In this document: positions 906 through 63,585 of the stretch, in pieces
Position numbering within the stretch: position 1 is the first letter of the stretch
How the letters are laid out: each line of letters begins with the position of its first letter
Position numbers and translations under genes: made by a program
Notes under the pieces: generated by a model
The model's input: the letters and a program-made list of their open reading frames with translations, nothing else
Database searches by the model: none
Told to the model about the DNA's origin: nothing
Assembly (NCBI GenBank): GCA_964557125.1
Contig: CAZKYX010000002.1
Span: 25,828-89,827, forward strand
Length of the DNA: 64,000 nt
Direction: 5' to 3'
DNA from: an uncultured Gammaproteobacteria bacterium
GTDB taxonomy: Bacteria > Patescibacteriota > Microgenomatia > Levybacterales > GWA1-39-11

Positions 906-1008
906 TTTAATTTTTAAGCACAAATTTAAAATTTTTAATCAATTTTAAAATTCAAATTTATAAAATTTCTGTTTTGATTTCAAATTAAAAATTAAGAATT
1001 AAAAATTA
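906..1008. repeat. AT-rich ~95-bp intergenic element, copy 1 of 5
   Basis: AATTTTT-type heptamer run ending in attaaaaatt, related to copies at 42685, 50000, 58178 and 60934. Confidence 0.6.
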
Positions 1009-1054
1009 CACTTCAATTGACATATCAAGCTTCAATTGATAAACTGTCTCTTCC

Positions 1055-2230
1055 ATGCGAAGAAGAAGTCCCATACGAAGTGTGGGAAGATTACTCAAAA
1101 CATTAGCCTCAGGAAAATCCTTTTTTCACATCCTCATACCGGGAGTTATATTTTTCTATAAAGAATTTGTTGGTTTTATCTCCTTCTTAACTACCTATTT
1201 TAAGGCAAAAATCATGTTTTTCTCCAATATTTTTGAGAAGAACAAAAATGTAGTCGTAAAGTCAGTACTTATCAAAAGAGGGAAGAGAAATCGCTTTTTT
1301 CTTCATGTCAGTGCCATGGCGGTGCTTTCAATTGGAGTTCTTATTTCTCCCTTTATTTCAGATACGAATAAATTTGGTCAAAGTAATTCACTCTTAAGCT
1401 TTGCACAGGGGCTTAACGAGACTCAAAGTCTTGCACCTCAAGATGTATTCCAAACACGCGCAAGTGATAAGCCTCGGTCTGAAGTACTTGTGTATAAGGT
1501 GCAAAAGGGAGATACATTATCAGGAATTGCTCAGAAATTTGGAATATCAGAGGACACTATTAAGTGGGAGAACAATTTAAGTGGAGATTCGTTAACCGTT
1601 GGCGATAGCCTCAAAATTCTTCCGGTTTCGGGAATTGCGCACAAAGTATCAAGTGGAGATACTATTTATACTATAGCTAAAAAGTATGATGCAAATGCTC
1701 AGGCTGTAGTCGACTTCCCTTTTAATGATTTTGCAGATCCACAGACCTTTTCTCTTGTTGTCGGGCAGACGGTTATTGTGCCTGATGGAGTAAAGCCTGC
1801 TGCCCAGCCAAGCTATATTGCAAGGCAAAAATTTATACCGAGTGGTTCTGTAGTAGTCTCGGGTGCTGGTTTTACATGGCCTGTTGGGGGTACTATGAAT
1901 CAGTATTTTGCATGGTATCACCCTGGAATTGATATTGGAGCATCGGTAGGTACACCTGTTGTGGCTGCTCAAAGTGGTGTGGTTGTGGGTGCTTATACCG
2001 GTGGGTGGCATGGAGGGTATGGAACCCATGTTATTGTCTCAGGGGATAATGGGTATGGTTCTTTGTACGCTCATATGAGTGCTGTGAATGTAAGCGTAGG
2101 TCAAAAAGTTACGGCTGGTTCAACACTTGTTGGATGGGTAGGAATGACCGGAAGAACAACTGGTCCTCATCTACATTTTGAAGTACATAGTGGAGGTGGG
2201 AATCTTAATCCGTTATCGTTCTTAAGATAG
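1055..2230 (+). CDS. LysM-domain M23 family metallopeptidase (true start may be the ATG near 1214)
   Basis: Two LysM-like repeats (YKVQKGDTLSGIAQKFG, HKVSSGDTIYTIAKKYD). M23 motifs HPGIDI and GPHLHFEV. One TM segment. Confidence 0.85.
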   Translation: MRRRSPIRSVGRLLKTLASGKSFFHILIPGVIFFYKEFVGFISFLTTYFKAKIMFFSNIFEKNKNVVVKSVLIKRGKRNRFFLHVSAMAVLSIGVLISPFISDTNKFGQSNSLLSFAQGLNETQSLAPQDVFQTRASDKPRSEVLVYKVQKGDTLSGIAQKFGISEDTIKWENNLSGDSLTVGDSLKILPVSGIAHKVSSGDTIYTIAKKYDANAQAVVDFPFNDFADPQTFSLVVGQTVIVPDGVKPAAQPSYIARQKFIPSGSVVVSGAGFTWPVGGTMNQYFAWYHPGIDIGASVGTPVVAAQSGVVVGAYTGGWHGGYGTHVIVSGDNGYGSLYAHMSAVNVSVGQKVTAGSTLVGWVGMTGRTTGPHLHFEVHSGGGNLNPLSFLR

Positions 2231-2237
2231 AGGGTTT

Positions 2238-2340
2238 AGTTAGGAAAGCGTACAGCGTACAGTTTAAGAATAAAGTATAAAGAAAAGGGATTTATTCTTC
2301 GAGCGGAGCCTGCCTAGTCCGTGAGACTGGTCGAGAAGGT
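2238..2340. repeat. Cassette junction repeat, long form
   Basis: agttaggaaagcgtacagcgtacagttt...aataaagtataaag...ttcttcgagcg...ggtcgagaagg recurs at 50921-51026. Shorter relatives lie at 31615-31672 and 33561-33622. Confidence 0.7.
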
Positions 2341-2361
2341 AAAAAAGAAGTAAAAAGAAAT

Positions 2362-2470
2362 ATTTTTTTCTTGTACTTTCGGCCGTCGAAAGTACCAAAG
2401 CCTCTTGTCATGCTGTGCTCCATGTATTTAAAACTCCATTTCACTCACGAAAATTCCGGACTAGTCCCGC
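2362..2470. repeat. Element E copy 1 (GTACTTTCG hairpin plus CAAAGCCTCT block)
   Basis: Perfect 9-bp stem gtactttcg/cgaaagtac at 2373-2395, followed by ccaaagcctct and cactcacgaaaattccggact. Homologous copy at 29851-29950. Confidence 0.7.
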
Positions 2471-6335: not shown

Positions 6336-7439
6336 TTGAATATCGAATATAGACAAATTATGAAAACTGCCCAACAAGATAGAATTAAGAATATCGAATA
6401 TAGAATATCGAAGATTGAGAAGAAAGGTAAGGCCCAATATTCAAAAATCAATATTCAAAATTCACAATCCAGCACCGCTGGATTTACTTTAGTTGAGATT
6501 CTTGTTGCAACAGCGGTACTTTTAACGCTTTTGAGTGGAGTAGTGTTGACTCTTAACCCAATAAAGCAGCTCAATAAAGCAAAAGATGCGACCCGTTCCC
6601 GTGATTTGCAGTCAATTAAAGTAGCCATTGATACCTATTATCAAGATACCAATTGTTATCCTCATGAAATTCCATTTGGAAATGAGTGGAGAGTGAGAAA
6701 TGCAAATGGACAGGACACGATATATATGAAGGAAGTCCCACAAGATCCTGACTGTACTGACTCCAATTCTTCTTGTTATGCATATAGGACAGTCGAAGAT
6801 ACGAATGATTCTACGTATAGTTGTCCTCAGTGGAATGTTCTCTTTGCGCCAGTAACAAAAGAATCGTCTCTTACGAATGTTTGTCCACTCACCTCACTTT
6901 CAAATTGTATTCCAGCAGGATACGACCAAGGAACATGGGCATGTTCACTTTCAGGAGCAGTTGACTGCGATTCATTACTTGCCGTATCTAGTCTAACTGG
7001 TGGGGTAGAGACCGTTGGACCAACAGCAACCCCAACCCCTGGCCCAACAGCAACACCAACACCAACCCCAACACCAGACCCACAATCAGGAACATTCCCA
7101 TTGCTGCAAGGTGGAACGCCTGACCTTTATGAAGTAACAATAAATCATTTGTGGGCATATCCACTTGAGTCACAATCTTGGAGTGTAAAGGTAAGCGATA
7201 GCGTTGCACAAGTAGAGCAGGTGCAAGTGGTTGTGACTTCAGATGGTGGCGCACAAGCGACATTTAATCTAAATCCCCCAAGTGGTTCACCTAATAATGA
7301 GGGTAGTTGGACTGGAGTCAGACAGGTAGGAGCAACTGAGACATTTGAAGATACCTATTATGTAGAGTTCTTTGCACGTGATGCTTTGGGAAATACCAAT
7401 GGAAGCACAGTACTACCTATAAGAACAAGCGGACAATAA
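6336..7439 (+). CDS. Type IV pilin-like protein (prepilin N-terminal motif) with Pro/Thr linker and C-terminal beta domain
   Basis: The G|FTLVEILVATAVLL class III signal motif is present. The leader before it is unusually long and encoded by GAATATC/CAATATT heptamer arrays. Confidence 0.75.
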   Translation: MNIEYRQIMKTAQQDRIKNIEYRISKIEKKGKAQYSKINIQNSQSSTAGFTLVEILVATAVLLTLLSGVVLTLNPIKQLNKAKDATRSRDLQSIKVAIDTYYQDTNCYPHEIPFGNEWRVRNANGQDTIYMKEVPQDPDCTDSNSSCYAYRTVEDTNDSTYSCPQWNVLFAPVTKESSLTNVCPLTSLSNCIPAGYDQGTWACSLSGAVDCDSLLAVSSLTGGVETVGPTATPTPGPTATPTPTPTPDPQSGTFPLLQGGTPDLYEVTINHLWAYPLESQSWSVKVSDSVAQVEQVQVVVTSDGGAQATFNLNPPSGSPNNEGSWTGVRQVGATETFEDTYYVEFFARDALGNTNGSTVLPIRTSGQ

Positions 7440-12578: not shown

Positions 12579-12729
12579 AAGATTGGGTTATAGATTGCGG
12601 GTTTTAGGTTTCTGATAAAACACGCTTGATTAATTATTGCGACGTTCAAACGAATTTGTCAAGTATTAAGTTGGCAGGGTTGCACCCTGCCATGTTACAA
12701 AAAGGCTTTATGTGATATTTTTGATGCAA

Positions 12730-24000: not shown

Positions 24001-25887
24001 AACGATAAATGCGGCTGTTGCTGATTCTGAGGCCAATACAGCAAATTTGTCATCAATTTCTACAGCTCCTTGGCTGATGTTGCCAGTCGTACCAAGATTT
24101 ATCAGCGGCTTTTCAAGATCAATTTTTCCCAGCCCATCAGGTATTAGGATAATATTTCCACCAGATGATGAATTAGTTGCCAAGACAAGCGGTTGTCCGG
24201 ACAGCTTAAATTGACCTCCTGATGCGGTAAAAGTAGGAGCAGCACTTCCGCCGATTGTAAGATTTCCTGATGCATCTAAGGCCAAAACAACATTGGTGGT
24301 TGCAGCGGTTCCAGTAATAGGCGGAAGGCCTTGTAAGAATTCTGAGTTGGTAGCATAGGCAACTGTTGCTATTCTTTGCCGAGGGGTTAGCTCAGGTGTT
24401 GAGGCTATAGTAACACCAAGCCATGTATTTATGTTGTCAGAGAATACCGTTGTTGGGATAACCGTACCATTTCCAAGAATTACTGAGAATATACCGTCTT
24501 GATCTGGTGTAACACTGGTGAGTACCTCCTGCCAGAGGAGTGCGGCTCCAGATGCGGAAGCATCATCGTAAATAGCAAAACGAATATTTGTCGAAGTTGT
24601 TATAGGATTGTCTAAGTTATCAGTAAGCCTTCCTTGAAATGACAAAACACGAGGTGGAGCAACAGGTGCAGCGAAAGATGGCAGTATGTCTTTGTTACCA
24701 ACAAGGTTTTGGTACAGTGCAATCCCCACCCCTGAGGCAAAGACTATCAATATTGCAAAATGAAGGTAGTGGGAAAATGTATAGGTATGATATTTTTTGT
24801 ACCAATCTGGTCTGGTATGACGCATATGATGCCATATTCTTTTGTGAAAAGGGGAGCCTTGAAGCTGAATTGCTTGAGGTGCATAAAACTCTTTTTTAAT
24901 ATTGCGTATTCCAAGTAGATCGTGAAGTTTTAACTTTCTTTGAAACTCTAAGACTTTTTTTGCGTTAAGGGTTTTTTGTGCAACGTTAAGAGGTAGCGTG
25001 TTAAGCGCCTTCTTGCCAGTTATCATAAGCGCTATTGCCTGCGCTGTTTTTTCTTCAAAAAGAAGATAGGGGAGAACAAGGGTTTTTTGAAGGAGTCTAA
25101 GGGGGGCAAATTTTGAATAAGAGATACTGACTGGTTCATTTACCGCTGCTGTTTTTGTTTTGATGTCAGATAGCGCTATGGTTGGCTCAACAGCTTCAAG
25201 TTTTGCTTCAACTGAGGACAGTATTATTTCTTGTGGAGAAATGAGATTTTGCTTGGTAGCAAATTCCAGATATCGTCTGAGAGAGGAGAGCTTGCGATTG
25301 ATGGTTCTTGGAGCAGCTCCTTGGATATCAAGAAGTCTTTTTTTGTAACCATCCAATACCTCTTGGTTAATATGATAAAAATTTGCCTGCTTTGTTAATG
25401 GATTTTCAAGAGTTGGTAGGACTGCGGTTTCAAACCATCTGGCAAAATTTTGTATGTCATTGATATAGTTCTTTATAGTTAGATGCGATGAGCCAAAGAC
25501 ATAGAGGTAGTCTTTAAAATCTTGGATATGCCAGAGATCGGGTTGTAGGTTGTAGGTTGTAGGTTGTAGCAAGAAGGGATTTGCTTCAATTACCTTTTCT
25601 TTCACAAGCATTGTGCTCAGTTTGCGAATGGAGGATATGTGTCGGTTGATTGAACGTAGCGATATGCCTTCTTGCACAACTCCGTATTTGATAGCCCCAC
25701 CTTGTGTCTGCTTGTAGAGCTGAATAGTATCCTCTGAAATGTCGGTTGGGCTAATTGTTCTTCCAGTTGTCCTTTCAAACCACTGAATAAAATGGCGAAT
25801 ATCAGAAAGATAATTTTTTAAGGTGATTGGTGATACCTTTTTCTTTTCTGAAAGTAGTTGTGATTTAAAGAATTCTAGTAGTTCCAT
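15076..25887 (-). CDS. Giant surface protein (3603 aa): two N-terminal integrase SAM-like domains, a TM, then repeat-rich ectodomain with LVIVD-type repeats
   Basis: N-terminal ITLKNYLSDIRHFIQWF and LTIKNYINDIQNFARWF...RTINRKLSSLRRYL. TM YLHFAILIVFASGVGIALY. Eight repeats of LSIIDISDPTSPTEIGT type. Recurrent SAKFAVLNINGS modules. Confidence 0.9.
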   Translation of the reverse strand: MELLEFFKSQLLSEKKKVSPITLKNYLSDIRHFIQWFERTTGRTISPTDISEDTIQLYKQTQGGAIKYGVVQEGISLRSINRHISSIRKLSTMLVKEKVIEANPFLLQPTTYNLQPDLWHIQDFKDYLYVFGSSHLTIKNYINDIQNFARWFETAVLPTLENPLTKQANFYHINQEVLDGYKKRLLDIQGAAPRTINRKLSSLRRYLEFATKQNLISPQEIILSSVEAKLEAVEPTIALSDIKTKTAAVNEPVSISYSKFAPLRLLQKTLVLPYLLFEEKTAQAIALMITGKKALNTLPLNVAQKTLNAKKVLEFQRKLKLHDLLGIRNIKKEFYAPQAIQLQGSPFHKRIWHHMRHTRPDWYKKYHTYTFSHYLHFAILIVFASGVGIALYQNLVGNKDILPSFAAPVAPPRVLSFQGRLTDNLDNPITTSTNIRFAIYDDASASGAALLWQEVLTSVTPDQDGIFSVILGNGTVIPTTVFSDNINTWLGVTIASTPELTPRQRIATVAYATNSEFLQGLPPITGTAATTNVVLALDASGNLTIGGSAAPTFTASGGQFKLSGQPLVLATNSSSGGNIILIPDGLGKIDLEKPLINLGTTGNISQGAVEIDDKFAVLASESATAAFIVNNQSVGGDIFTASQGGTTKFVIDTNGNVAIGKRTANFTLDVAGTASISSTLSLGPSIQSDAGACAVATAGRMYYDGPANTYYYCNGTSWTQMGSGSGGSSFFRLTNGALSPINDTLDLLIGGVATSTAKIAFTGINTGGTPTASFSGNLSLQVPTGSAPSALFNVLNGGSLNFQTASTGQGDAGLISRLFIANDGRIGINTSSPFTKLALDVRGLTGTTGTASISARSSFASLLVDNAGIGDIIVASQAGRTVLRIDNNGNLIVGANGGGKITADIVDPYLVQNQKTSGITSLTFQTMGASNADFIFQNVSTELSRLTQAGQFQLPITGSTGGIVLGGDAQLFRGAANRIDLSSGDSFNLVSGGLLVGGSTIIDSSGNGTFATLNVTSGCTGCGASGPNSPFQVLSGTIVPVNSTVDFLLGSQATTSAKFAVLNINGSTVPTASVSAQNAGGQALVLGGDGSLQTTRNNTLSLGGSTTGNIALLPRNAGGYVGINTSSPLSTLDVNGTLRVTNTADATDYFTLSSGNTSTTLSRTTNGSILGSVTLDNAGTLTAENVTVSSILNVSSFTGQSGGIIYANASGQVYQAAAGTGTQCLLGGTTPTWGSCSAGGTDSPFTTNLGAIVPGNITQDFLLGAQSTTSAKFAVLNMNGTGPAIASISGNLIVMPQNGSGGNIGIGTINPTKKLTIAGGGLLITPHLSQVGTITEGAGATKLSGIQDVYISRSYAYVTGEDSLSIIDISDPTSPTEIGTITDGAGATELDQPTGVFVVGKYAYVVSYEDAALSIFDVSDPTSPTEVGTIKDGIGATKLYGARKVFVNNGYAYVTSDNEDALSIFDVTNPSSPTEVGTLTSSELDAAYGLYFANGYIYVTSLIDDSLSIIDVTNPASPNILSTIKDGVGATKLDGAISVYVEDDYAYVTGENSLSIIDISNPVSPMEIGTITDGIGATELNSPDEVYVSGKYAYVASTQDDSLTLIDISDPVSPTEAAVIKNGVGAINMNEVHQVFINKNFAYITSTDDTLSVIETSGVNAPSLATNVLSVSGDATLDNNLYISGSTFIDYYASSGAALSIQGANFKTGKILDLSGTFSPTTGGYTSAMDINITHSPTTTNDLFSSFNLTTNDSGTIANSDVLGINNRLNVTSNASNKDIIGIQNYIQNSSNLGDNLNGISSTLDITNSISTGERSATGIYSAVLANGGGDTNANIYLTGGYFHSAYSTDSDNTGATIDVIGLQAFVEGSLTTGGTIGLYGLMISEPNTSTTGNSTAFGIYLEPQTGADNNYGLCFDCDGSWDQNTVGSGIQFGTDANGVNLYRAANDTLRTDDNLSAGGFATISGNLTLEGVGRAVQSTDFNALTLGGTTTGDIILLPKDGIGTVSIPSTSTTGTVLSLAANSLTTGEAVDITTAITTNDTYGQLLDLNLTHTPTDDYGEFSGIDLSNNTSGSYEGTFFGIKNGLSLTGSSTNRNGYGIKNAVSTTSSSGTERLYGIYSSAVGAEDLSGSRNLTAIYGFASASSDGSGGTIVEKSIVGETSFWTTAATSTTVNMSALYALPDAPFILGGSPVVNSYGLNVQWEGFANTTGTTSQYSIYLDVPQGADNNYGICFDCDGTWDEINTTAAGIQFGTDANGVTLYRSASDTLKTDDAFNVAGNINLSSAGVASGLTGLTLASGPITLSASTGTGQCLIGGATASWGACGGGVAGSNWRLSSGALSPINDTLDLLVGSTSSSSAKFAVLNINGTATPVASVSATSGTDINKGIYLSGNGSIQSVRNNTLTIGGSTTGVTQLASQVIQFTGASQIIDTAVAGTLNFNTITNRPITTGTGLLTTGGNLSVNGSTTTLASTVINLTGNSPTIDLTHASTLSINTTTNRPITTGTGLTTLGGNLTVNGSTTSLASTTISLTGASPILNLTHASTLSINTTTNRPITTGTGLLTAGGDLTVAGATTTFSNAAAVLTTGTNLPLTITPNGSGDLILSSDFDTGVYVGASTNTPAALSVTGGIGSNAGFIINRVGLNNDIIAASSAGVTRFVVKNDGTASSAAGFAVDAAAGLQSTRNQTLVLGGSSTGDINIVPRNGSGVLNLQLSSTNGLRMNGTFGAAVTGGNTCISDVVNGIVTGTVACAGGGGGSSNWRITTNTGALSPINNTLDILIGAQATSSAKFSVLNINGSASPFASVSATLASGGSGNGISIGGDGTLQTVRNNTLVLGGTTTGDIWFKPANNLGSLFLTSNGKVNIGTLQSPTGSIFGGKLNVFSNDAGPVASFSGRTSYAALVVDQASGSGDLIAASRSGQNVFRVFNDGTVDVGPAATGKLNAGTVDPPYTIDGQGYATYMPSMVGVKEEYTGKVVLGYDNSVGGYAYKLDFNHFEYQSGHWVFNRIIDPDISNVSVLLSPNSQAKTWYKKDGANRTITLFADRPVEISYRLTAPRFDHDKWKTYTGVIKGHIAPPPTVNGSSANDNNIGADPYYNTLTINRESGQWVLKDVNNNNVNQMEAYGKVFVAQIKSGLVNTRELITDTFQASTASISTLTGNSFNFASGTISSLNSSMSNLGNATASSLNISTENISIAGISLKNYINQTVTQLLASGNFTSPVADSEQIRTNIISPTGNNGTIALNIESNNIKLKNTTTGKVVAQINDNGDASFSGTLSSEVALFESASISGSLATGSLTTNDATISGTLYANNIDGLDTRIANQLQNQQQASLSGNLASGNVDSLHVGNLTADYGIFEQGIVALGPATFTSLTAMEQISIGDSFVIGDNAINTLGADLEIQPLRQGGVNFLAGLVKIDTNGNMDIAGNLNVLGNIAAQNGVFNGILTANSIATNLISPLADNALVIARSPNSVIASGSAAISSDNLLDVRGSLSASGSGTFAKLNFNIVGQAHATSDLEATATGSAGFATLKKNKPELTIYNPNVTEDSLIYITPFGDTQNKVLYLLRQVPDSEFESGSFTVGVSGPVINKDIQFNYLIVN
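25541..25568. repeat. (GGTTGTA)4 heptamer array inside the giant CDS
   Basis: Encodes LQPTTYNLQP in the linker between the two SAM-like domains. The same array is intergenic at 40914 and, as its complement, at 42281. Confidence 0.85.
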
Positions 25888-29177: not shown

Positions 29178-29200
29178 ATTCGATATTCAATATTCTAAAA

Positions 29201-38000: not shown

Positions 38001-38138
38001 ACAGTTGACAGTTCACAGTTAACAGTTAACAAAGAGATTGAAGAGATGGGTAAGGAGATAGCAGCAAAATATCTTGAAGGTAATGAAGTCAAGAAAACAA
38101 TCTACGTAAAAGGAAAGATACTTAATTTTGTTATATAG
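35037..38138 (+). CDS. leuS: Leucyl-tRNA synthetase with an inserted alpha/beta-hydrolase-like domain and heptamer-encoded C-terminal inserts
   Basis: HVGN (HIGH-type), KMSKSKGN, TTRPDT editing motif, RDWLISRQRYWG. Total length 1033 aa against about 800-860 aa typical. Confidence 0.95.
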   Translation: MEDKNTENKYNPQEIEAKWQEKWESDKTFSMDMDRAENPFYNLMMFPYPSAEGLHVGNMYAFTGADVYAKFMRMQGKDVLEPIGLDGFGIHSENYAIKIGRHPKEQSKSAEKNFYRQLKSIGNSFDWDRTVETYSPDYYKWTQWLFTEMFRKGLAYRKTALVNWCPKDLTVLSDEQVIDGECERCSTKVEKRDLEQWFFRITSYADRLLDGLENIDWTEKVKTAQRNWIGKSEGAQIDFPVLEDRNFVLLHGYTGSVEANFFPWLKEKLSKVSTSVWAENLPHTNAPDVEKQAQFVLDNARFDENTVLLGHSLGAAVALKVVEKLKSPIKKLVLAAGFMQPGFTDHARPFEASFHWEFDSEAIKKNVEEIIILRASNDYAIPAERADYIKSQIGGTIIDFEAEDEHICGEIEPIVLDSLCARLKVFTTRPDTLFGATFMVIAPEHPLVEAMVHGKWSMANTDEVKKYVEEVAGKSDIERTHAASSGQAGSAEEKTGVDSGLFVLNPANMKKIPIWVADYVLAGYGTGAIMAVPAHDQRDFATAKKYGLPIVPVIQPKQPNEYNPTEEPYIGNGEIIGSDEWNGFHAPKDMGKVISWLEEKGIGLKKSNYHLRDWLISRQRYWGAPIPMIYCEDCAKRYKGQVENMPGWYAEKPENLPVLLPDVQNWRPEGTGSSPLASHPEFYETTCPECKGKARRETDVSDTFLDSSWYFLRYPSTDIENNAFDIERTRKWLPVNMYIGGAEHSVLHLLYSRFVTMVLKDLGLVEFDEPFTKFFAHGLIIKDGAKMSKSKGNVVVPDEYIRKYGADSLRAYLMFLGAYSDGGDFRDSGIDGMHKFLRKVWKLLSNVTASDSTAVFEDADKLKFMHKTIKRVTKDIGEFGYNTAIAGLMEWYNFLIKQLTIDKQQLTREETEVFLKLLAPFAPHMTEELWQQTQITDYRRQITESQKSEIGNQKSIHLEKWPEFEEKYLVSSTALIIVQVNGKKRGELTVDSSQLTVNKEIEEMGKEIAAKYLEGNEVKKTIYVKGKILNFVI

Positions 38139-40065: not shown

Positions 40066-40904
40066 AAAAGTATTTACTGCTACTTGCACTCTCACTATTT
40101 GTACTTGGAACGACGGCGATTTATCAGTATGCAAAGTATACTGATAAAAAGCTGCATATAACGTTTTGCAATGTGGGACAAGGCGATTCGATATTTATAC
40201 GCACACCACAAGGTGCAGACATTTTAATTGACGGTGGACCAGCTTCAAATGTGCTAGATTGCCTTGCAAATCACATGCCTTTTTGGGACAGGGATATAGA
40301 AATTATCTATCTTACGCATCCAGATGCTGACCATCTCACAGGGCTTATTGATGTGTTTGAAAAGTATAATGTCCTTTATTTTGGAACAAGTGATGCGCCA
40401 AAAGATACAGATGTATTTAAGCAGTTAAACCAGCATATTGCTATGGAAAGCATCAAGAAGAATTTTATTTACAGAGGCGACAGTGTGAAATTATCTGATG
40501 GAGTTGCCATCAAAACTCTGTGGCCGACCGTTGAGTATACGCATTCAGGAGAGGAGGATACAAATAACTATTCGTTGACTCAGGACCTTTCGTATGGTAG
40601 TTTTCATGTCCTTCTGACAGGTGACATACCGTTTCAAATTTTGAATTCTATAATGCCAACTCTTACTGACATTGATGTTTTCAAGCCACCTCATCATGGG
40701 TCAAAGACCGGAGTAGACGAATATACCTTTCAGCACATACTTCCAAAAGCAGCAGTTATATCTGTTGGAAAGAAGAATAGATATGGTCATCCCAACAATG
40801 GAGTGCTTGGAATTCTACAACAAAATAATATCCCATATTATAGAACCGATGAGATGGGAGATATCGAGTTTGTAACTGATGGAAAGACGTGGAAGATTAA
40901 ATAG
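40062..40904 (+). CDS. ComEC-type metallo-beta-lactamase domain protein, separate ORF
   Basis: ATGA overlap with the previous ORF. TM, then NVGQGDSIFIRTP..ILIDGG, HPDADH and PHHGS motifs. Confidence 0.8.
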   Translation: MKKYLLLLALSLFVLGTTAIYQYAKYTDKKLHITFCNVGQGDSIFIRTPQGADILIDGGPASNVLDCLANHMPFWDRDIEIIYLTHPDADHLTGLIDVFEKYNVLYFGTSDAPKDTDVFKQLNQHIAMESIKKNFIYRGDSVKLSDGVAIKTLWPTVEYTHSGEEDTNNYSLTQDLSYGSFHVLLTGDIPFQILNSIMPTLTDIDVFKPPHHGSKTGVDEYTFQHILPKAAVISVGKKNRYGHPNNGVLGILQQNNIPYYRTDEMGDIEFVTDGKTWKIK

Positions 40905-40913
40905 GTTGTAGGT

Positions 40914-40933
40914 TGTAGGTTGTAGGTTGTAGG
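40914..40933. repeat. (GGTTGTA)n heptamer array
   Basis: ggttgtaggttgtaggttgtagg lies directly after the stop codon. Confidence 0.85.
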
Positions 40934-40936
40934 ATT

Positions 40937-41004
40937 GTCATTCCGGACTTGGTCCGGAATCTAGATCCTGAAAATAAATTACAGGATTTCGTCAGCAGAA
41001 TGAC
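40937..41004. repeat. GTCAT-capped composite palindromic element
   Basis: gtcattccggacttggtccggaatc..gatcctgaaaataaattacaggat..cgtcagcagaatgac, with terminal inverted GTCATTC/GAATGAC. Confidence 0.75.
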
Positions 41005-42150: not shown

Positions 42151-42313
42151 ACCCAAACAAAAGCTCTTGTTTTTTTATTGTAAGAATGCTAGCCTGAGAG
42201 TAGGTGGTAGTGAGCCCTCCAAGAGGACTAGCTATTTCATAGCGGCGTAGTGGGTAGGTAGTAGATGGGGGAATTTTTCTACAACCTAAAACCTACAACC
42301 TACAACCTAATTT

Positions 42314-42685
42314 ATGAAAAAGGTATTGCTTGTTGATGATGAAAAAGAAACCTCCGTTGTTTTTGAAACAGCTCTGCGTCAAGCGGGCTATGAGGTAAGA
42401 GTCGCGGCAAATGGTCAGTCTGCTGTTGATATGGCAAAAGCAGAGCAGTACGACCTTATACTTCTTGATCAAATGATGCCTGATAAGTCTGGCAATGATG
42501 TCCTAAGAGAGCTCAAAGCAGACCCAGCAACCGCACAAATGCCAGTAGCCATGCTTACCAATTTTGGACATGAAGAAATGGTAAAAGAGGCACTAAATGC
42601 AGGTGCAATTGACTACATCCTCAAATATCGGGTAAGTCATAGTGATTTGATAACTAAGGTAAAAAGATTGTTAGGTGAAGCCTAA
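42314..42685 (+). CDS. Stand-alone response regulator receiver (CheY-like)
   Basis: VLLVDDE, LILLDQMMPDKSG and a conserved Lys region (DYILK). Confidence 0.9.
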   Translation: MKKVLLVDDEKETSVVFETALRQAGYEVRVAANGQSAVDMAKAEQYDLILLDQMMPDKSGNDVLRELKADPATAQMPVAMLTNFGHEEMVKEALNAGAIDYILKYRVSHSDLITKVKRLLGEA

Positions 42686-42785
42686 AATTAAATTTTTAAT
42701 TTTTAATTCTTAATTTTTAATGAATTGACTCATTAGAAAATTTGAATTTGATTTAAAATTTTAAATTTGAATTTAAAAATTATTA
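42685..42785. repeat. AT-rich ~95-bp intergenic element, copy 2
   Basis: Shares the 27-nt identical tail aaaattttaaatttgaatttaaaaatt with the 50000-50090 copy. Confidence 0.7.
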
Positions 42786-45981: not shown

Positions 45982-46119
45982 GGACCACACATTCTGTTAT
46001 TCGTGATTGGTTATTAGTAACTTAGCTAGTTCTTATCTGCAACCTAAAACCTGCAACCTGCAACCTAATCTAATCTCATAGTTTTGATTTCCCCCTGAAA
46101 AGAGAGTATAATTCCCACA

Positions 46120-48016: not shown

Positions 48017-48074
48017 CCCTTCGACAAGCTCACTGCTTGCAAGCTCAGGGTCTACGACCTGCGAATTCACACTC

Positions 48075-48106: not shown

Positions 48107-48291
48107 ACCAACTTCTCGATTTCACTTCATTTCACTCGAAGAATATTGTTCGAGGTACTCTCGAGAACTAAACTATTCATAGTTCGTTACTCATAATTCA
48201 TCATTCTTGCTTCTTTATCCATTTTGCATAATACTTACATTAGGTTGTTTATTGTCTAATAACTAATAACTAACAACCAATCACTAAGGTT

Positions 48292-49989: not shown

Positions 49990-49999
49990 GGAGATAAAT

Positions 50000-50090
50000 C
50001 GAAATTTTTAATTTTTAATTTGAAATCAAATCTAAATGTTTTAATGTTTAAAAATTGATTAAAAATTTTAAATTTGAATTTAAAAATTGT
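50000..50090. repeat. AT-rich ~95-bp intergenic element, copy 3
   Basis: aaatttttaatttttaatttgaaatcaaatctaaatgtt...aaaattttaaatttgaatttaaaaatt. Confidence 0.7.
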
Positions 50091-50920: not shown

Positions 50921-51026
50921 AGAAACAGCGTGAAGTTAGGAAAGCGTACAGCGTATAGTTTGATGAAAGTATGGAGAATAAAGTATAAAGAATATTTACT
51001 TACTCTTCGAGCGTGGTCGAGAAGTT
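50921..51026. repeat. Cassette junction repeat, long form
   Basis: Co-linear with 2238-2340. Confidence 0.7.
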
Positions 51027-51194
51027 TGAGAAATTTTTAGTAATTAATAACTTGATTAGGAATTAGGAATTTGAAATTAGGAATTCCCCCCTCGGCATTT
51101 GGCTTTGGGGGGAAAGAGTGACAGGTACACCTGTTTTGAAAGCCTATTCAGACAGCGAGTGTCTGACAGACTTTTTTGGCAGATATATCTGTTA

Positions 51195-55565: not shown

Positions 55566-55675
55566 AATTATTTTAGTGACTAGATACTAGTAACTAGGAA
55601 ATAGTTTACACTCAGTTAGTTTCTGTTGTCTACTATATCTTTCTAGTTTCTAGTGTCTATTTTCTATTAACTATC

Positions 55676-57256: not shown

Positions 57257-58132
57257 TTAGTATAGGTCGAGGAACCAATCGTGATGCATTTTATGTCTAT
57301 GTCGAAATTTATCAATTATTATAATCATTAACCTGACTCTTAACTTATAAAGAAGTAGGCCTATTATAATAAGGAGTATGAGTGCTAAGAGTCCAAGAAA
57401 GACAAGGTCGAGTCGGTACTTTTTTGCGAGATTTTCCCCTGTTTCTTTTACCGTATTTGTTATTTGTGAAGGAATGGAGAGAGCTTCAAGACTCACTTCG
57501 TGAAGTGGCGGGAGGGACTCTTTCCCTTCAAGCGTAGCGCTTGCAGTAAATGTATAAGTACCAGCTGGCACATTCTTAAATTCATACGCATAGTATCCAG
57601 TTGCATCAGCCTTCAGGCTAACCGGTTTGCCATCGATAAGCAGTGCAACGTCTGCGTTGGGCATTGTATACCCATATATCAGAGCATTCTGTCCTGCATT
57701 TATTTGCTTTTTTGAGAGACCAATCGTTGGAGGGAGAAAAATATCATTTCTTGTTATGTTGCCGGTGATTTCTTCATCAATATCTATACATGCATCTGAT
57801 TGTCCTATTCTTTTAAAATCAATTGCAGTAAGACAAAAGCCAGAAAAAGTATCAGTAATCAATATGTCTGATATAGTAAAATATCCTTTTGAGTCAGCAA
57901 CTGCAGAGCGCATAAATATGCCGCTTTGTGTCGTCATGACGATTGATGCATACGGTGACTGATACCCCTGAATACTAAGATAAAACCTTCCAACTGTTGC
58001 AACTATATCTATCGGTTTGCTTTGAGCTTTTGAGGGAAAGAGTGTCTGGGCATCAGATTGAGGAGAAGCAATAAACAAGAAACAATAAGCAATAAACAAT
58101 AAACACACAACAGAAGCAAAAAGCCGTTTCAT
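57257..58132 (-). CDS. Signal peptide plus two Ig/CarboxypepD_reg-like domains plus C-terminal TM
   Basis: SKGYFTISDI and TGYYAYEFKNVPAGTYTFTASA. TM LVFLGLLALILLIIIGLLLY. Confidence 0.6.
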   Translation of the reverse strand: MKRLFASVVCLLFIAYCFLFIASPQSDAQTLFPSKAQSKPIDIVATVGRFYLSIQGYQSPYASIVMTTQSGIFMRSAVADSKGYFTISDILITDTFSGFCLTAIDFKRIGQSDACIDIDEEITGNITRNDIFLPPTIGLSKKQINAGQNALIYGYTMPNADVALLIDGKPVSLKADATGYYAYEFKNVPAGTYTFTASATLEGKESLPPLHEVSLEALSIPSQITNTVKETGENLAKKYRLDLVFLGLLALILLIIIGLLLYKLRVRLMIIIIDKFRHRHKMHHDWFLDLY

Positions 58133-58177
58133 ATATTTAGTATTACGTATCAGTGGGTAAGTATCAAGAGCGGTATA

Positions 58178-58268
58178 AATTCAAATTTTTACTTTTTAAT
58201 TTTTGATCAAATCAAAATGTTGCAATTTAAAAAACATTAAAAATTCTAAATTTTAAATTAAAAATTAT
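58178..58268. repeat. AT-rich ~95-bp intergenic element, copy 4
   Basis: caaatttttactttttaatttttgatcaaatcaaaatgtt...ttttaaattaaaaatt. Confidence 0.6.
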
Positions 58269-60764: not shown

Positions 60765-60933
60765 AATGCACTTCTATTAACAATCTTACCTAATAATACT
60801 GGTTTTTAAACTTTGTAGCAAGGGATTGGTTTTGGCTTCAAATATGTCTTAGGACTTGCAAGCATACCGGTGCATTGATATATTGAGTATAAGACAATCT
60901 CAAATGATATAGTAAGTGTATATTGTGATATAT

Positions 60934-61039
60934 TAATTTGAAATTTTTAATTTTAAATTCGAAATGAAATCCAAATGTATCAATTTTAAATTTATTTTTT
61001 ATATTTAATTAAAAATTATAAATTTGAACTTAAAAATTA
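60934..61039. repeat. AT-rich ~95-bp intergenic element, copy 5
   Basis: gaaatttttaattttaaattcgaaatgaaatccaaatgta...aaaaattataaatttgaacttaaaaatt. Confidence 0.65.
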
Positions 61040-62059
61040 ATGTATATGTTTTCAAAAAGAATTGGCATTGATTTAGGCACAGCAAATACTCTTGTGTATT
61101 TAGCTGGCCATGGTGTGGTTCTTAATGAGCCGACAGTTGTGGCTGTTAGAGCTGATGACAACAAGGTGGTTGCAGTAGGTACTGAGGCAAAGGAGATGCT
61201 TGGAAGAACCCCTGGCAATATTGTTGCAACAAGACCTTTAAAAGATGGAGTGATTGCCGATTACGTAATTACTGAGTCAATGCTTGCATACTTCATTGAA
61301 AAAGTCACCGGCAAATCCCGATTTATTAAGCCTGAGGTTATGGTATGTGTGCCTTCAGGTATTACTCAAGTAGAAAAGCGCGCGGTACTTGATGCTACGC
61401 AGTCAGCTGGTGCCCGAGCCGTGTACCTTATTGAAGAGCCCTTGGCTGCTGCAATTGGAGCAAAAATTCCAATCGCTCAGGCTACGGGACATATGATTTT
61501 GGACAGTGGTGGAGGAACAACTGACATTGCTGTTATCTCCCTTGGAGGTGTTGTTGTGCATAAGTCAATTCGAATTGCAGGGGATAAGGTTGAGGAGGCA
61601 ATCAGTAACTATATACGAAAGAAATTCAATTTGATGGTTGGAGAGCAGACTTCAGAAGAGATTAAGGTGACTATGGCAAATGCAATTCCAGCAAGTACTT
61701 CTACAAAGAAAATGGAGGTAAAGGGTCGAGATACCGTGAGTGGACTTCCAAGACAAGCTGAGATTGATGAGTTTGAGGTAAATGAAGCAATTCAGCCAGT
61801 TCTAAAGGCGATGATTTCTGCCATTCGAGAAACATTTGAAATGACGCCCCCCGAATTGGCATCCGATATAATTGATAAGGGCATTGTCCTGTCTGGTGGA
61901 ACAACGATGCTTCGCAACTTTGACAAATATATAACTCGTGAGACTGGTGTTCCAGCATATGTTGCAGAAGACCCATTGTATTGTGTTGTGAGAGGAACAG
62001 GAGTGGCACTTGAGAATTTGGAACTTTACAAACGCAGTATCAATCGAAATGAGAGTTAA
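61040..62059 (+). CDS. mreB: Rod-shape-determining actin homologue MreB
   Basis: IGIDLGTANT, DGVIADY, DSGGGTTD and LSGGTTML motifs. Confidence 0.95.
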   Translation: MYMFSKRIGIDLGTANTLVYLAGHGVVLNEPTVVAVRADDNKVVAVGTEAKEMLGRTPGNIVATRPLKDGVIADYVITESMLAYFIEKVTGKSRFIKPEVMVCVPSGITQVEKRAVLDATQSAGARAVYLIEEPLAAAIGAKIPIAQATGHMILDSGGGTTDIAVISLGGVVVHKSIRIAGDKVEEAISNYIRKKFNLMVGEQTSEEIKVTMANAIPASTSTKKMEVKGRDTVSGLPRQAEIDEFEVNEAIQPVLKAMISAIRETFEMTPPELASDIIDKGIVLSGGTTMLRNFDKYITRETGVPAYVAEDPLYCVVRGTGVALENLELYKRSINRNES

Positions 62060-62061
62060 GT

Positions 62062-62126
62062 GTCACTGCGAGCAAATCGAAGCAGTCTTAAACAGATAGT
62101 TTCGTCACATGCCTCCTCGCAATGAC
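62062..62126. repeat. GTCA-capped palindromic element directly after the mreB stop
   Basis: gtcactgcgag...ctcgcaatgac terminal inverted repeat with an inner gaagcagtct / agatagtttc pair. Confidence 0.7.
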
Positions 62127-62418
62127 TGAGAAAGTTGAGTAACTTATAGTTTAAATGTATTTTGAAATCTGAAAATTATAAAAGTATCTTGTAGTTTTGT
62201 GAAAATAATATACTAGCTTAATACTTTTCACAAAAGTTGTGAACTTGATAACAAATAAGTATCTTATATAATTATCATTAAGTCACTATTAATAAATTAA
62301 TATCAATTACAGTAATACGCAGTTTAAATTATTAAATAAAGCATTATATGAGAGTAAAAAATATACACAAGGCGCTTAAAAGGTAGTGAAAAAGTTGTAA
62401 TAATTTTAGACATATAGT

Positions 62419-63207
62419 ATGAATACAAAATTGGCTTCCGTAATAATTTTAAATGTTGATGTCACAAGTGAGAAAAAGGACATAGTCTTAAAGTATGTGG
62501 TAGAAAAGAGCAGTAAGAGGGATGAAAAGTTCTATATAGTAACACCAAATCCAGAAATTTTAATGTATGCAAAGACTCATCCTCAGTTCAGAGCAATACT
62601 GAATGATGCGAGAGTTGCTTTACCAGACGGTGTGGGTGTGCTCATGGCAGGGAGGATAGCCGGAAAAAGCATTATAGGTCGAATTACCGGTGTTGACTTT
62701 ATGCTTGAGCTTTGTAGCGAGTATGCAAAACGGCCTATTACCATAGGCTTTTTAGGAGGTATGGGGGGAGTAGCAAAGATGACTGCCGAGTGCTTACAAA
62801 AAAAGCACCCAACTCTTAAGGTCGTCTTTGCGGAAGATGAGTGGCCAACCGAGAATAAAGAAGAACGAATATCAAATGTCGATAAGAAGGATCAGGATTC
62901 AAAATCCAATATTCAAAATTCCAAACCAATTCCTCACATCGATATGCTATTCGTTGCTTTTGGATTCCCGAAACAGGAAGAGTGGATTGCAAAAAATTTA
63001 GAGAGACTACCGGTGACGGGCATGATGGCAGTAGGGGGAGCATTCGATTTTATTGCCGGAAAAATTCCAAGAGCTCCCAAGATGGTAAGAAGCATTGGTA
63101 TGGAATGGGCATTTCGACTTTTGATGCAGCCCTCACGTTTTAAAAGACAATTGGCTCTTCCAGCATTTGTTCTAGAAGTTCTGAAAGAGAGAATAAGAAA
63201 GAAATAG
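62419..63207 (+). CDS. WecB/TagA/CpsF family glycosyltransferase with a low-complexity insert
   Basis: PDGVGV and FVAFGFPKQEEWI motifs. The insert NKEERISNVDKKDQDSKSNIQNSKPIP contains the aatattcaaaatt word. Confidence 0.8.
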   Translation: MNTKLASVIILNVDVTSEKKDIVLKYVVEKSSKRDEKFYIVTPNPEILMYAKTHPQFRAILNDARVALPDGVGVLMAGRIAGKSIIGRITGVDFMLELCSEYAKRPITIGFLGGMGGVAKMTAECLQKKHPTLKVVFAEDEWPTENKEERISNVDKKDQDSKSNIQNSKPIPHIDMLFVAFGFPKQEEWIAKNLERLPVTGMMAVGGAFDFIAGKIPRAPKMVRSIGMEWAFRLLMQPSRFKRQLALPAFVLEVLKERIRKK

Positions 63208-63585
63208 TTAGATAGTAATAGCTGATAGCTTAAAAACCCCCAAACTCCTCGCTTGCTAACCACTTCAAGAATAATTATTGTTCGAGTGAAATCGAGAACT
63301 AAGAATAAATAATTTTTGGTACGTATCTAGTGCCTCAATCCCTTGAAGATTTGTTAGGTATTCGACTTTTCAATTTAATTTCGAACATAGCTTAGGTTGC
63401 AATTTGTGTCGGGTTTGCGTCCCACTTTTTTCGATAGGATGGCTGTGTTTTTGCTCTAAATTGCCAATAATAATAGGAATTTAATCTTGGTAAAAAAACC
63501 GAAAAAGTGGGACTTGACAAGGTGTGATATTCTTTGCTACTCTGAATATAGATTTGATAGTGATAGTGTTAATTTAAGGCAGAAA

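Follow-up and report, generated by a model that had tools for sequence, protein, structure and literature searches.

Period-7 repeats in the window

This locus raises the question of whether the short words that recur every 7 nt in its spacers, and in frame within its genes, are real tandem repeats and, if so, what kind of element they represent and how they arose. The window, i.e. the whole 64,000-nt stretch of DNA analysed, derives from an uncultured Levybacteria-like (CPR) bacterium and carries genuine short tandem repeats with a 7-nt unit. These arrays are heptanucleotide simple-sequence repeats of the LSSR/STRR type, a known class and not a new kind of element; what is new here is the example in a Levybacteria-like CPR genome.

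TRF (score of at least 30) detected 33 period-7 arrays in the 64 kb, versus 1.35 in global dinucleotide shuffles and 1.8 in 200-bp local shuffles (about 1.5), i.e. an approximately 20-fold over-representation that bears out their initial description as pervasive. The only other TRF periods far above shuffles were 14 (2 x 7; 8 arrays versus 0.2-0.35), 19 (4 versus about 0.06) and 24 (3 versus 0); at periods 6, 8, 9 and 11, where few arrays are expected, the excess was only about 2- to 9-fold. Exact lag-7 runs of at least 12 nt numbered five in the window and none in 30 shuffles, no exact run of this length being found in the window at the other periods within 2-15, and a mismatch-tolerant scorer returned 13 period-7 arrays versus 0.07 expected. 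The autocorrelation against shuffled controls, which had been suggested as a check, confirmed the signal in non-coding DNA, with a lag-7 match fraction of 0.323 versus 0.281 (z=8.8), z=4.7 at lag 14, z=2.1 at lag 21, z=4.4 at lag 8 and no signal at lag 6 (z=-0.1). Furthermore, about 23 of the 33 arrays lie in non-coding DNA, which represents about 13% of the window, in agreement with the enrichment outside genes and the diversity of words noted initially. The arrays have a mode of 4-5 units, a median length of 30 nt and a density of about 0.5 per kb. As they are built from many unrelated words, it is the length of the unit that is special, not its sequence.

The initial annotation called the period strict, which holds for most of the sites that it listed, with at least 14 of 21 lag-7 matches (42690, 6389, 6435, 28745, 25541, 34014, 34917, 42281, 46038, 48255, 51056, 55640, 37835, 37997 and 62898), and is slightly overstated for others that are weak or of period 8: 906 (12/21, TRF period 19), 63208 (11/21), 59470 (5/21), 43707 (5/21, TRF period 8) and 6341 and 34866 (weak or not period 7). 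The sites 33605 and 50945 belong to this weaker group too, AGCGTAC being present there as two units only.

Arrays in spacers, at gene edges and in dispersed modules

Arrays whose end is no more than 6 nt from a start codon are in excess (9/46 versus 4.05 for random placement, P=0.005). In the window, (i) a degenerate AACCTNN-family array (12582..12614, minus strand) stops 3 nt short of the start codon of gene 11946-12578, on the same strand, (ii) a CTAATAA array (48256..48287, plus strand; TRF) leaves 4 nt to the ATG of the histidine-kinase gene, (iii) degenerate TAGNNGG units followed by (CTACAAC)x4.4 (42247..42309, plus strand) end 4 nt before the response-regulator ATG, the orthologous site in L087 having a TAGGTTG-type array, and (iv) the divergent leuS upstream region (34854..35033; TRF) holds three arrays, namely AGGTTAC (34854-34877), its inverse CTAAAAC (34914-34943) and AATAGCT (35007-35033), the last reaching to 3 nt from the ATG of leuS. 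A GAATATT-type array (29172..29195, minus strand) overlaps the start codon of the bAvd-like gene 28800-29177. At the other edge of a gene, the comEC metallo-beta-lactamase ORF has as its stop codon the first TAG of (TAGGTTG)x5 (40902..40938, plus strand; TRF). Within spacers, an AGGTTAC array (AACCTNN family, minus orientation) and an AATAACT array (34014..34098; TRF) adjoin a GC hairpin at 34107-34135, a CTGCAAC/CTAAAAC array of the AACCTNN family (46037..46066, plus strand; TRF) lies 17 nt upstream of a promoter-like TTGATT-17-TATAAT, and a TTTCTAG array (55640..55666, plus strand; TRF) separates two minus-strand genes.

Several arrays first listed as separate cases are not independent, since they belong to three dispersed module families whose similarity reaches past the periodic core: an AT-rich inverted-repeat module, an AGCGT motif and AACCTNN arrays with shared flanks. 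The AT-rich module (roughly 105 nt) occurs five times in the window, on the plus strand: at about 898-1018 (module alignment), an AAATTAA array (982..1008, plus strand; TRF, inverted arms) forming its right arm; at 42683..42782 (inverted arms, module alignment), with an (AATTTTT)n arm starting 5 nt past the response-regulator stop and an (AAAAATT)-type arm; at 49995..50088, in a convergent intergenic spacer; at 58176..58267, in a divergent spacer; and at 60928..61045, abutting the mreB ATG at 61040. The AGCGT motif (37 nt) is present in four copies, of which copy 1 (2225..2284, plus strand) holds a 2-unit AGCGTAC array followed by an AAGAATA array, and copy 4 (50921..51085, plus strand) is accompanied by AGAATAA and ATTAGGA arrays. 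The AACCTNN-family arrays are eight in number; three share flanks, and 6-7 of the eight are in C/A-rich sense orientation to the nearest downstream gene.

Arrays in frame within genes

As initially reported, arrays also lie in frame within conserved genes, including a giant-gene linker, a prepilin leader and LeuS, and they occupy tolerant segments (two signal peptides, the prepilin leader, a domain linker and variable LeuS loops). GAATATC and CAATATT arrays (6389..6468, plus strand) lie in a long prepilin leader (…IKNIEYRISKIEKKGKAQYSKINIQNSQSSTAG/FTLVE), and the prepilin gene has no alternative start codon ahead of G/FTLVE. In a 3603-aa gene, a perfect (CTACAAC)x4.1 (25541..25569, minus strand; TRF) encodes LQPTTYNLQP, which links two integrase-SAM-like domains (Pfam matches on orthologues). 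The signal-peptide n-region of a 265-aa protein contains an array (28745..28776, minus strand), at which position the L087 orthologue has an array of a different word and the L085 orthologue is shorter and has none. A T-rich array (sense UGUUUAU; 58069..58105, minus strand; TRF) encodes the hydrophobic core of another signal peptide (CLLFIAYCFLFIA). The in-frame array placed at 62898 is a degenerate 7/14-nt array (62897..62924, plus strand; TRF), and the gene, first called WecB-type, belongs to the WecG/TagA/CpsF family.

The leuS gene contains a degenerate AATGGTA array (36386..36416, plus strand; TRF) and, in its C-terminal region (37728..38031, plus strand; TRF, homologue comparison), four in-frame arrays where three had been counted: a degenerate one at 37728, CAGATTA (37836-37867), TCAGAAA (37871-37900) and AGTTAAC (37996-38031). 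Compared with L003 and L004, the stretch 37836-37900 is inserted, and 37996-38031 is a variable stretch of equal length in all homologues. The array-bearing loops have different inserts in the homologues L001, L002 and L004, and the C-terminal arrays are identical in strain variants.

Strains and other genomes

The arrays were reproduced base for base in 11 contigs from at least seven other samples and three assemblers, and so are not assembly artefacts. Among strains that are 99.2-99.9% identical, unit number differs in one of 24 compared arrays, (TAGGTTG)x5 at 40902..40938, in which L084 has three additional units (+21 nt), and the between-strain comparison revealed no excess of substitutions inside arrays versus elsewhere. 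The arrays are stable between strains and are not rapid phase-variation switches, contrary to the idea of contingency loci created by unit-number slippage; with 1/24 changed, ongoing slippage must be slow. The L082 and L083 assemblies end at 34881-34893, within the leuS upstream region.

Array counts vary with lineage: 33 per 64 kb in the window, 15 per 22.5 kb in L001, 5, 3 and 0 per 23 kb in sister genera, and 27 in a total of 1.29 Mb of mostly Firmicutes-type loci. AACCTNN arrays are present on at least 120 metagenome contigs (GC 0.36-0.68), 56 of the 80 inspected bearing further period-7 arrays; among a set of 95 loci, the exact AACCTNN pattern was confined to the species of the window. 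In 206 arrays from other genomes, the likeness between units falls with distance, as local duplication predicts.

Relation to known heptanucleotide repeats

The initial annotation knew of no named repeat class that matched, but LSSRs, STRRs, TAACTGA repeats (Beggiatoaceae) and GGGAATC repeats (Xanthomonas) have already been described, and the window arrays share with described heptamers a size of about 4 units, an intergenic location, inverted pairs and positions just before start codons. According to the summaries in PMC4679880 and PMC4692102 of the LSSR survey (Mrazek, Guo and Shah 2007), in many prokaryotes heptanucleotide SSRs outnumber every other class of long SSR, and polymerase slippage has been proposed as their cause; as in the window, 7-nt units exceed other unit lengths, are mainly non-coding, comprise many words and are phylogenetically scattered. 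The hosts named in these summaries are Burkholderia, cyanobacteria, Actinobacteria and Xanthomonas, with no CPR, and the window differs from the survey as summarised there by its array density and its in-frame cases in the essential leuS gene and in signal peptides.

In Xanthomonas and Nostoc PCC 7120, the heptamers GGGAATC / GGGGA(T/C)T are likewise intergenic, with a mode of about 4 units and inverted pairs (Rehm et al. 2015, PMC4692102), and related species share sites that vary in length and sequence, as in the window; each of these genomes has a single G-rich, quadruplex-forming word family (PMC4692102), whereas the window has many families of mostly A/T- or C/A-rich words. The TAACTGA direct repeats found in marine Beggiatoaceae, Bacteroidetes and some cyanobacteria (MacGregor 2015, PMC4679880) resemble the window arrays in having 2-6 units, in lying mostly a few nt before start codons, where they replace SD sites, in overlapping, in some cases, the preceding gene's stop codon, and in having in-ORF copies at protein termini. 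They consist of one word with related heptamers rare, unlike the many words of the window (PMC4679880). As far as described in PMC9879509, Borg elements also have pervasive perfect tandem repeats, intergenic and in frame, creating new protein segments; these regions are rapidly evolving and recently formed, with unit lengths not given in that description, in comparison with which the window arrays are short, of fixed 7-nt unit and strain-stable. The Calothrix/Nostoc heptamers are named STRR examples, and those of Calothrix PCC 7601, as outlined in PMC4692102, are heptanucleotide tandem arrays of several word families at many intergenic loci, as in the window. The STRR host is a heterocystous cyanobacterium and the window host a CPR bacterium.

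Word searches of the window found neither GGGAATC, GGGGAYT and TAACTGA nor CCCCAGT, TTGGTCA and CAACAGT, which are reportedly the STRR words of Mazel et al. 1990. The closest match to TAACTGA is the LeuS (CAGTTAA)n, whose complement TTAACTG is 6/7 identical.

Origin of the arrays

On balance, the arrays probably arose by slipped-strand duplication that proceeds in 7-nt steps in this lineage and is filtered by selection; some of them may have been co-opted as SD-less leaders. Local slippage during replication or repair would favour a 7-nt register in this lineage, seeding and homogenising short arrays from locally present words, and inverted copies probably arise nearby via strand switching. 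As their distribution shows, arrays persist where harmless, i.e. in intergenic spacers, pre-start leaders, the first bases past stop codons and insertion-tolerant protein segments; in-gene words have to be stop-free in all three sense-strand frames, given that three units (21 nt) make up seven codons. Most arrays are probably neutral spacer DNA, and the start-abutting subset may serve as low-structure leaders or promoter-proximal DNA.

Slippage is consistent with the period specificity, the many words, the variation between lineages, the whole-unit strain difference (+3 x TAGGTTG), the decay of unit likeness in the 206 arrays, the non-coding bias, the tolerant in-ORF sites, the wide occurrence in metagenome contigs and the slippage proposed for the class in the literature (PMC4692102, PMC4679880). 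Taken alone, it does not account for the preference for 7, for a copy number peaking at 4-5 rather than declining geometrically, or for words recurring with similar flanks (AACCTNN x8, AT-rich module x5, AGCGT motif x4); the excess near start codons hints at function or site preference, and the strain stability also speaks against it.

It is possible, with a clearly lower probability, that the arrays are functional mRNA-leader cis-elements that stand in for SD sites or are bound by a translational regulator (S1-, Csp- or CsrA-like), as earlier proposed for the Beggiatoaceae repeats (MacGregor 2015, PMC4679880). Arrays end 0-4 nt before the starts of leuS, the response regulator, the histidine kinase, mreB and 11946-12578, all without an SD motif, a geometry equal to that in MacGregor 2015, and heptamer arrays lie directly upstream of the leuS start in Chloroflexi too; the start-codon excess and the orientation of the AACCTNN arrays point the same way. 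However, only about one-fifth of intergenic arrays are start-adjacent, some lie upstream of promoter-like sites or past stop codons in convergent spacers, predicted folding equals that of shuffles, and most core genes of the window lack SD motifs irrespective of an array. Moreover, words vary between genes and between orthologous sites, which makes a single sequence-specific binder unlikely, and the L087 response-regulator leader has the same word family reversed in orientation.

We consider it unlikely that the arrays, instead of forming in place, spread with small dispersed modules that may be mobile (MITE- or SDR-like), as the three module families and the contigs of other assemblies that break at modules might suggest, since the compared strains showed neither target-site duplications nor a transposase nor any module present in some and absent from others, most words (e.g. 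CAGATTA, AGTTAAC, AATGGTA, TTTCTAG and ATTAGGA) are single-locus, and the exact AACCTNN pattern is restricted to one species among the 95 loci.

An action at the DNA level, through phased A/T tracts, UP-elements or protein platforms using 3 x 7 = 21 bp, is very improbable. AT-only words are common in promoter-containing spacers, the arrays or motifs at 34014, 46037 and 50921 lie 5-17 nt upstream of good -35/-10 matches, and the lone polymorphism is +21 nt; however, promoter-like sites are not enriched (42 versus 38.3 in shuffles), the lag-21 autocorrelation is weak and many words are not A/T tracts. The initial equation of 21 bp with two helical turns is not supported either, as the seeming 3-unit super-period arises from a boundary effect and vanishes in the 206 arrays of other genomes.

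Finally, although some contigs of other assemblies end within array-rich spacers (978 and 34881-34893), an assembly or sequencing artefact is ruled out by the independent assemblies of the same species, and long ORFs stay open across the in-frame arrays.

Over-representation and location of the period-7 arrays

Tandem Repeats Finder (score ≥30) returned 76 rows for the window, 33 of which have a period of 7, against a mean of 1.35 in 40 global dinucleotide-preserving shuffles and 1.8 in 40 shuffles confined to 200-bp blocks. Period 14, the double of 7, is represented by 8 arrays (0.2-0.35 in shuffles), periods 19 and 24 also exceed the shuffles with few arrays each, and periods 6, 8, 9 and 11 are about 2-9 times as frequent as expected, from low expected numbers. 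Five exact lag-7 runs of ≥12 nt are present in the window and none in 30 shuffles, no exact run of this length was found in the window at the other periods scanned from 2 to 15, and a mismatch-tolerant scorer detected 13 period-7 arrays against 0.07 expected. Lag autocorrelation of the non-coding DNA confirmed the 7-nt periodicity reported in the initial annotation (lag 7, 0.323 vs 0.281 in shuffles, z=8.8), with z=4.7 at lag 14, z=2.1 at lag 21 and z=-0.1 at lag 6; the signal at lag 8 (z=4.4) arises because a few arrays have 8-nt units or 7/8 mixtures. Most of the array positions listed there hold, whereas those at 906, 33605, 50945, 6341, 34866, 43707, 59470 and 63208 are weak or not of period 7.

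Among 29 indel-free arrays, the unit number is 2-3 in 4, 3-4 in 8, 4-5 in 14 and 5-6 in 3, and the median array length is 30 nt. According to a longest-ORF caller, 86% of the window is coding; about 23 of the 33 arrays are located wholly or partly in non-coding DNA (roughly 13% of the window) and about 10 lie inside ORFs.

Relation to known heptanucleotide repeats

The arrays had initially been thought to match no named repeat class. Such a class is nevertheless described: as summarized in two articles, heptanucleotide repeats are the most abundant class of long simple-sequence repeats (LSSRs) in many prokaryotic genomes, are strongly over-represented in Xanthomonas and Nostoc intergenic DNA, and have been proposed to result from slippage favoured by the contact of about 7 nt of DNA with the polymerase (Mrazek et al. 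2007, as cited in PMC4679880 and PMC4692102). LSSRs in this sense are head-to-tail 7-nt units, longer or commoner than composition predicts, which favour non-coding DNA, 7 not being divisible by 3. The window arrays are likewise over-represented (33 vs 1.35-1.8; 13 vs 0.07; lag-7 z=8.8) and concentrated in the non-coding fraction (about 23/33). Named examples include GGGAATC arrays, with a four-unit mode, inverted pairs and intergenic sites that are conserved while the array length varies (Rehm et al., PMC4692102), and TAACTGA arrays, which have two to six units, lie mostly just upstream of start codons without a Shine-Dalgarno (SD) motif, in some cases overlap upstream stop codons and have in-ORF copies at protein termini (MacGregor, PMC4679880). 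These features recur among the window arrays, the position just upstream of a start codon in a minority of them.

TAACTGA, searched as two units with ≤1 mismatch or three units with ≤2 mismatches, is absent from both strands of the window; GGGAATC and GGGGAYT are absent from the window, and GGG occurs in no array consensus, whereas the G-quadruplex repeats of Xanthomonas and Nostoc have a G-rich unit with a G3-4 run. One array in the leucyl-tRNA synthetase gene leuS (37996-38031), (CAGTTAA/CAGTTGA)n, is the complement of TTAACTG and 6/7 identical to the Beggiatoaceae TAACTGA, this likeness being in the "reverse", ORF-compatible orientation. The words of the cyanobacterial repeats STRR1-3, namely CCCCAGT, TTGGTCA and CAACAGT, belong to a heterocystous cyanobacterium and are absent from the window, whose LeuS relatives are by contrast Levybacteria of the Candidate Phyla Radiation (CPR). 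The window arrays are of the heptanucleotide-repeat kind, yet belong to none of the named word families (STRR1-3, TAACTGA, GGGAATC, GGGGAYT). No paper joining heptamer repeats with Patescibacteria or Microgenomates was found in the literature searched, and a poorly understood repeat class is now extended to the CPR.

Arrays translated in frame

As 7 is coprime to 3, three units make seven codons, and therefore only words that are stop-free in all three sense frames survive within genes. All in-frame arrays observed lie in tolerant protein segments. Indeed (i) in a giant protein, (CTACAAC)4 is read as LQPTTYNLQP between two integrase-SAM-like domains, (ii) the GAATATC and CAATATT arrays lie within an unusually long prepilin leader, N-terminal of the G/FTLVE cleavage motif, (iii) a T-rich array (58069-58105, minus strand) encodes the signal-peptide hydrophobic core CLLFIAYCFLFIA, and (iv) an array at 28745-28776 (minus strand) forms part of the signal-peptide n-region of a 265-aa protein. 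This n-region carries an array with another word in the orthologue from the syntenic sister-genus locus L087, and is without an array and 7-8 residues shorter in that from L085. The LeuS gene contains four in-frame arrays, of which 37836-37900 is an insertion relative to the homologues L003 and L004; the same loop holds unrelated inserts in L001 and L002, and L001 and L004 have heptamer arrays of their own at other loops. The window provides clean natural cases of a non-triplet repeat translated in frame, three units giving seven codons; the protein segments produced in this way include the hydrophobic core of a signal peptide, the linker between two domains and loops of an essential aminoacyl-tRNA synthetase.

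An array inside the L001 LeuS gene (10734-10759), (TAGGGTT)x3.7, corresponds to the plant-type telomere unit TTTAGGG read from another starting base, a likeness that is probably a coincidence. Furthermore, the LeuS of the window (35037-38138) embeds an alpha/beta-hydrolase domain (Ser_hydrolase PF06821, residues 248-401) within its split catalytic domain, immediately ahead of the editing-domain match. This fusion is common to dozens of Levybacteria-type LeuS homologues, some of which also have a NUDIX domain (PF00293); the LeuS of L001, L003 and L004 are without the PF06821 domain.

Variation between strains and distribution in relatives

Among strains of 99.2-99.9% identity, 23 of 24 distinct arrays have an unchanged unit number. 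The sole variable array, (TAGGTTG)n at 40902, is located after a stop codon and has exactly three extra units in the strain-level contig L084; across the assembled strain contigs the rate of unit-number change is low (1/24 arrays, by whole units). Substitutions within arrays are not in excess (in the strain contig L083, 2 of 87 mismatches in ~360 nt of array), and the LeuS arrays are protein-identical in all five cluster variants covering them, one of which has ~15 substitutions elsewhere; the LeuS of a 103-kb NCBI contig (P0123, cluster P0001) is, by eye, the same as that of the window. Given this stability, the lack of substitution excess and the invariance of the in-ORF arrays in all LeuS variants, the arrays are not hypermutable contingency loci, as had been suggested, and they do not display the frequent unit-number change switching a gene that defines phase variation.

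At greater evolutionary depth, array density shifts quickly. The syntenic 23 kb around leuS hold about 12 arrays in the window, 5 in L087, 3 in L085 and 0 in L086, and among further relatives L001 has 15 in 22.5 kb and L003 none. This patchy distribution (0 to 15 arrays per ~23 kb) suits comparative genomics aimed at the factor setting the 7-nt register, sought since 2007. The same period-7 excess is present in loci of the Chloroflexi families Ardenticatenaceae and Promineifilaceae (4-7 arrays per 15-22 kb), and the remaining 1.29 Mb, mostly Firmicutes-type loci, contain 27 arrays. In a metagenome scan, AACCTNN x4 was found on at least 120 contigs; among the matches listed, the 80 loci inspected have a GC content of 0.36-0.68, 56 carry additional period-7 arrays with other words, and period 7 is the commonest (162 vs 76 for period 9). 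In the two Chloroflexi families, heptamer arrays also immediately precede the leuS SD site or start codon (L066 9932-9998, also L072; L067 9959-9993), and L066 has an inverted pair, (GGAGATT)4/(TCTCCAA)4, just upstream of leuS that could form a ~28-bp stem.

Origin of the arrays and alternative explanations

Lineage-specific slipped-strand duplication combined with selection sparing harmless sites is the best-supported account and is considered fairly probable. Duplication with a 7-nt register would make the arrays, and selection would then retain them solely where they are harmless. In 206 arrays of other genomes, unit similarity declines with distance, in agreement with the prediction of local duplication. 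Slippage alone leaves unexplained the choice of 7, the length peak at 4-5 units, the recurrence of words and an enrichment near start codons; two further explanations are therefore kept alive, namely that a subset acts in leaders or translation and that small modules have spread the arrays.

A role of some arrays in leaders or translation is possible, though doubtful. Five arrays end 0-4 nt upstream of well-supported start codons, those of leuS (array 35007-35033), a response regulator (42279-42309), a histidine kinase (48256-48287), mreB (61007-61040) and gene 11946-12578 (12582-12614). No SD motif was found upstream of these five genes, but the core genes of the window are mostly without one anyway. 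In a pool of 46 intergenic arrays from the window, its Levybacteria relatives and four Chloroflexi loci, 9 end ≤6 nt from a start codon, a minority of arrays but more than the 4.05 expected if arrays were placed at random in their spacers (P=0.005); only one family has a consistent orientation (6-7 of its 8 arrays). In the response-regulator leader, a box, TTGATAGCCTGA, is conserved in L085, L086 and L087, and the window retains only its core TAGCCTGA. Between this box and the ATG lie 6 nt in L086, an SD site in L085 and a TAGGTTG-type array in L087; the leader of the window contains degenerate TAGNNGG units and a CTACAAC array in the opposite orientation. At the other end of genes, an AATTTTT array begins 5 nt past the response-regulator stop, and a (TAGGTTG) array itself provides the stop codon of the comEC metallo-beta-lactamase ORF; arrays at or just after stop codons are expected, because such words have stops in all three frames.

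Good -35/-10 matches end 5-12 nt before the starts at 1055, 3386-5545 (minus strand), 13508, 41236 and 50105-50875 (minus strand), for instance TGTATAAT, separated by 8 nt from the ATG at 41236, and TTGTCA-17-TATAAT, separated by 11 nt from that at 13508. These promoter-like matches suggest that many core mRNAs may be leaderless or have very short leaders. Sigma-70-like sites in the window are not enriched over shuffles (42 vs 38.3), and a promoter reading of the arrays was dropped on this count.

A broader and unlikely reading is that the arrays form a two-role generative system in this CPR lineage, beyond slippage debris, with register and length set by a trans factor. They could act as SD-independent leaders or slippable hairpin pairs directly upstream of core-gene starts, and could repeatedly give rise to new protein segments, namely signal-peptide cores, prepilin leaders, linkers and synthetase loops; the trans factor, specific to the lineage, might be a variant of a polymerase or repair protein or a protein that binds the arrays, and would fix both the 7-nt register and the length of 4-5 units. 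If true, this would help to account for the many insertions that characterize CPR proteins.

Dispersal of arrays on small modules is decidedly unlikely. The arrays are not all independent, since three dispersed families are present: (i) an AT-rich module of ~105 nt, with one (AATTTTT)n arm and an arm of the (AAAAATT) type in inverted orientation, in five copies (~906, 42683, 49995, 58176, 60934), (ii) a 37-nt motif containing the so-called AGCGTAC arrays, in four copies of the same orientation (2225, 31631, 33577, 50921), and (iii) an AACCTNN family (CTACAAC, CTAAAAC, CTGCAAC, CTGTAAC) at eight loci, three of which have similar flanks. With regard to MITE-like traits, the AT-rich module has inverted arms; a target-site duplication was not identified, and no empty site was found among the strain variants. 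Since the modules and inverted array pairs are predicted to fold no better than shuffles (z between -1.5 and +0.16), the idea that the AT-rich module, or the inverted pairs preceding leuS and the response-regulator gene, form hairpins or structured RNAs was rejected. Rfam and tRNA scans of the window gave no family and no tRNA gene. The 304-aa gene lying between the oppositely oriented arrays at 40902 and 42279 is not homologous to the minus-strand genes that L085 and L087 have at this position, and an inversion of the intervening segment was rejected accordingly. Two GC-rich hairpin families, each in three copies, are also present: CCCACCGTTCT...GAACGGTGGG (30168-30208, 31687-31727, 48066-48106) and GGCAGGGTTGCACCCTGCC (12666-12692, 12924-12950, 13409-13435), two copies of the latter lying within ORF 12730-13440 and the third just downstream of its stop.

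A role in DNA curvature is very unlikely. The idea that three units, or 21 nt, correspond to two helical turns finds some echo in the window, where units three apart are more alike (0.65 vs 1.09 mismatches) and the one polymorphism is of +21 nt. However, simulation showed that boundary effects bias the result in this direction too, though less strongly, and the 206 arrays from other genomes have no dip at unit separations 3 or 6, so that a 3-unit super-period is rejected as a general property. Lastly, an assembly artefact is extremely improbable, as the arrays are reproduced in 11 independent contigs (Logan, ENA, JGI), which come from seven or more further samples and match the window at 99.2-100% identity. 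In practice, short-read assemblies of these genomes break at array-rich spacers.

Gene content and other features of the window

The window has a GC content of about 0.40, and the best LeuS relatives with a phylum-level name are Candidatus Levybacteria/Levyibacteriota (55-59% identity), closer relatives reaching 65-67%. The window is assigned on this basis to a Levybacteria-like CPR bacterium, which its gene content (type IV pilin-like proteins, comEA, a two-ORF comEC, MreB, a response regulator and a histidine kinase) fits. The two comEC ORFs overlap in different frames and encode a Competence domain (38818-40065) and a metallo-beta-lactamase domain (39822-40904); as this split is conserved in strain variants and sister genera (L083-L087), it is a real two-gene arrangement, and an array-caused frameshift is ruled out. 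A surface-type giant protein of 3603 aa is also encoded (15076-25887, minus strand). Two phage-integrase SAM-like domains lie at its N-terminus, and units of 141-147 nt and of 162 nt are repeated within its ORF; its orthologues (about 3000-4400 aa) occupy the same place in L085-L087, one having Kelch/beta-propeller matches. Directly downstream of its stop (14976-15074), a 33-nt unit (ATAGATCCTTCACTTTCGTTCAGGATGACACGA) is repeated three times, the first two copies being identical, and is unrelated to the heptamer arrays.

A 125-aa gene (28800-29177, minus strand) has precomputed matches to 23S_rRNA_IVP and to bAvd, the accessory protein found with diversity-generating retroelements. GAATATC-type arrays lie on either side of this gene, which is absent from the syntenic L087 site. 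All 4-kb bins from 1 to 64000 have a positive GC skew (0.015-0.17; G 14281 vs C 11977), regardless of gene orientation, with the smallest values over the giant gene on the minus strand; a published study has reportedly dealt with strand composition disparity in a Microgenomates genome. In contrast to the SD-less core genes, two clusters of small genes (30480-31437 and 44009-47127) have canonical AGGAG SD sites and include a Phage_30_3 (gp30.3) homologue; they are probably prophage or mobile DNA. Strain indels apart from the arrays include 54 nt (46326-46379) missing from L083 and ~73 nt added at the mreB 3' end (window 62039-62061) in L089 and L090, and L084 has a shorter, unrelated segment in place of window 29848-30994.
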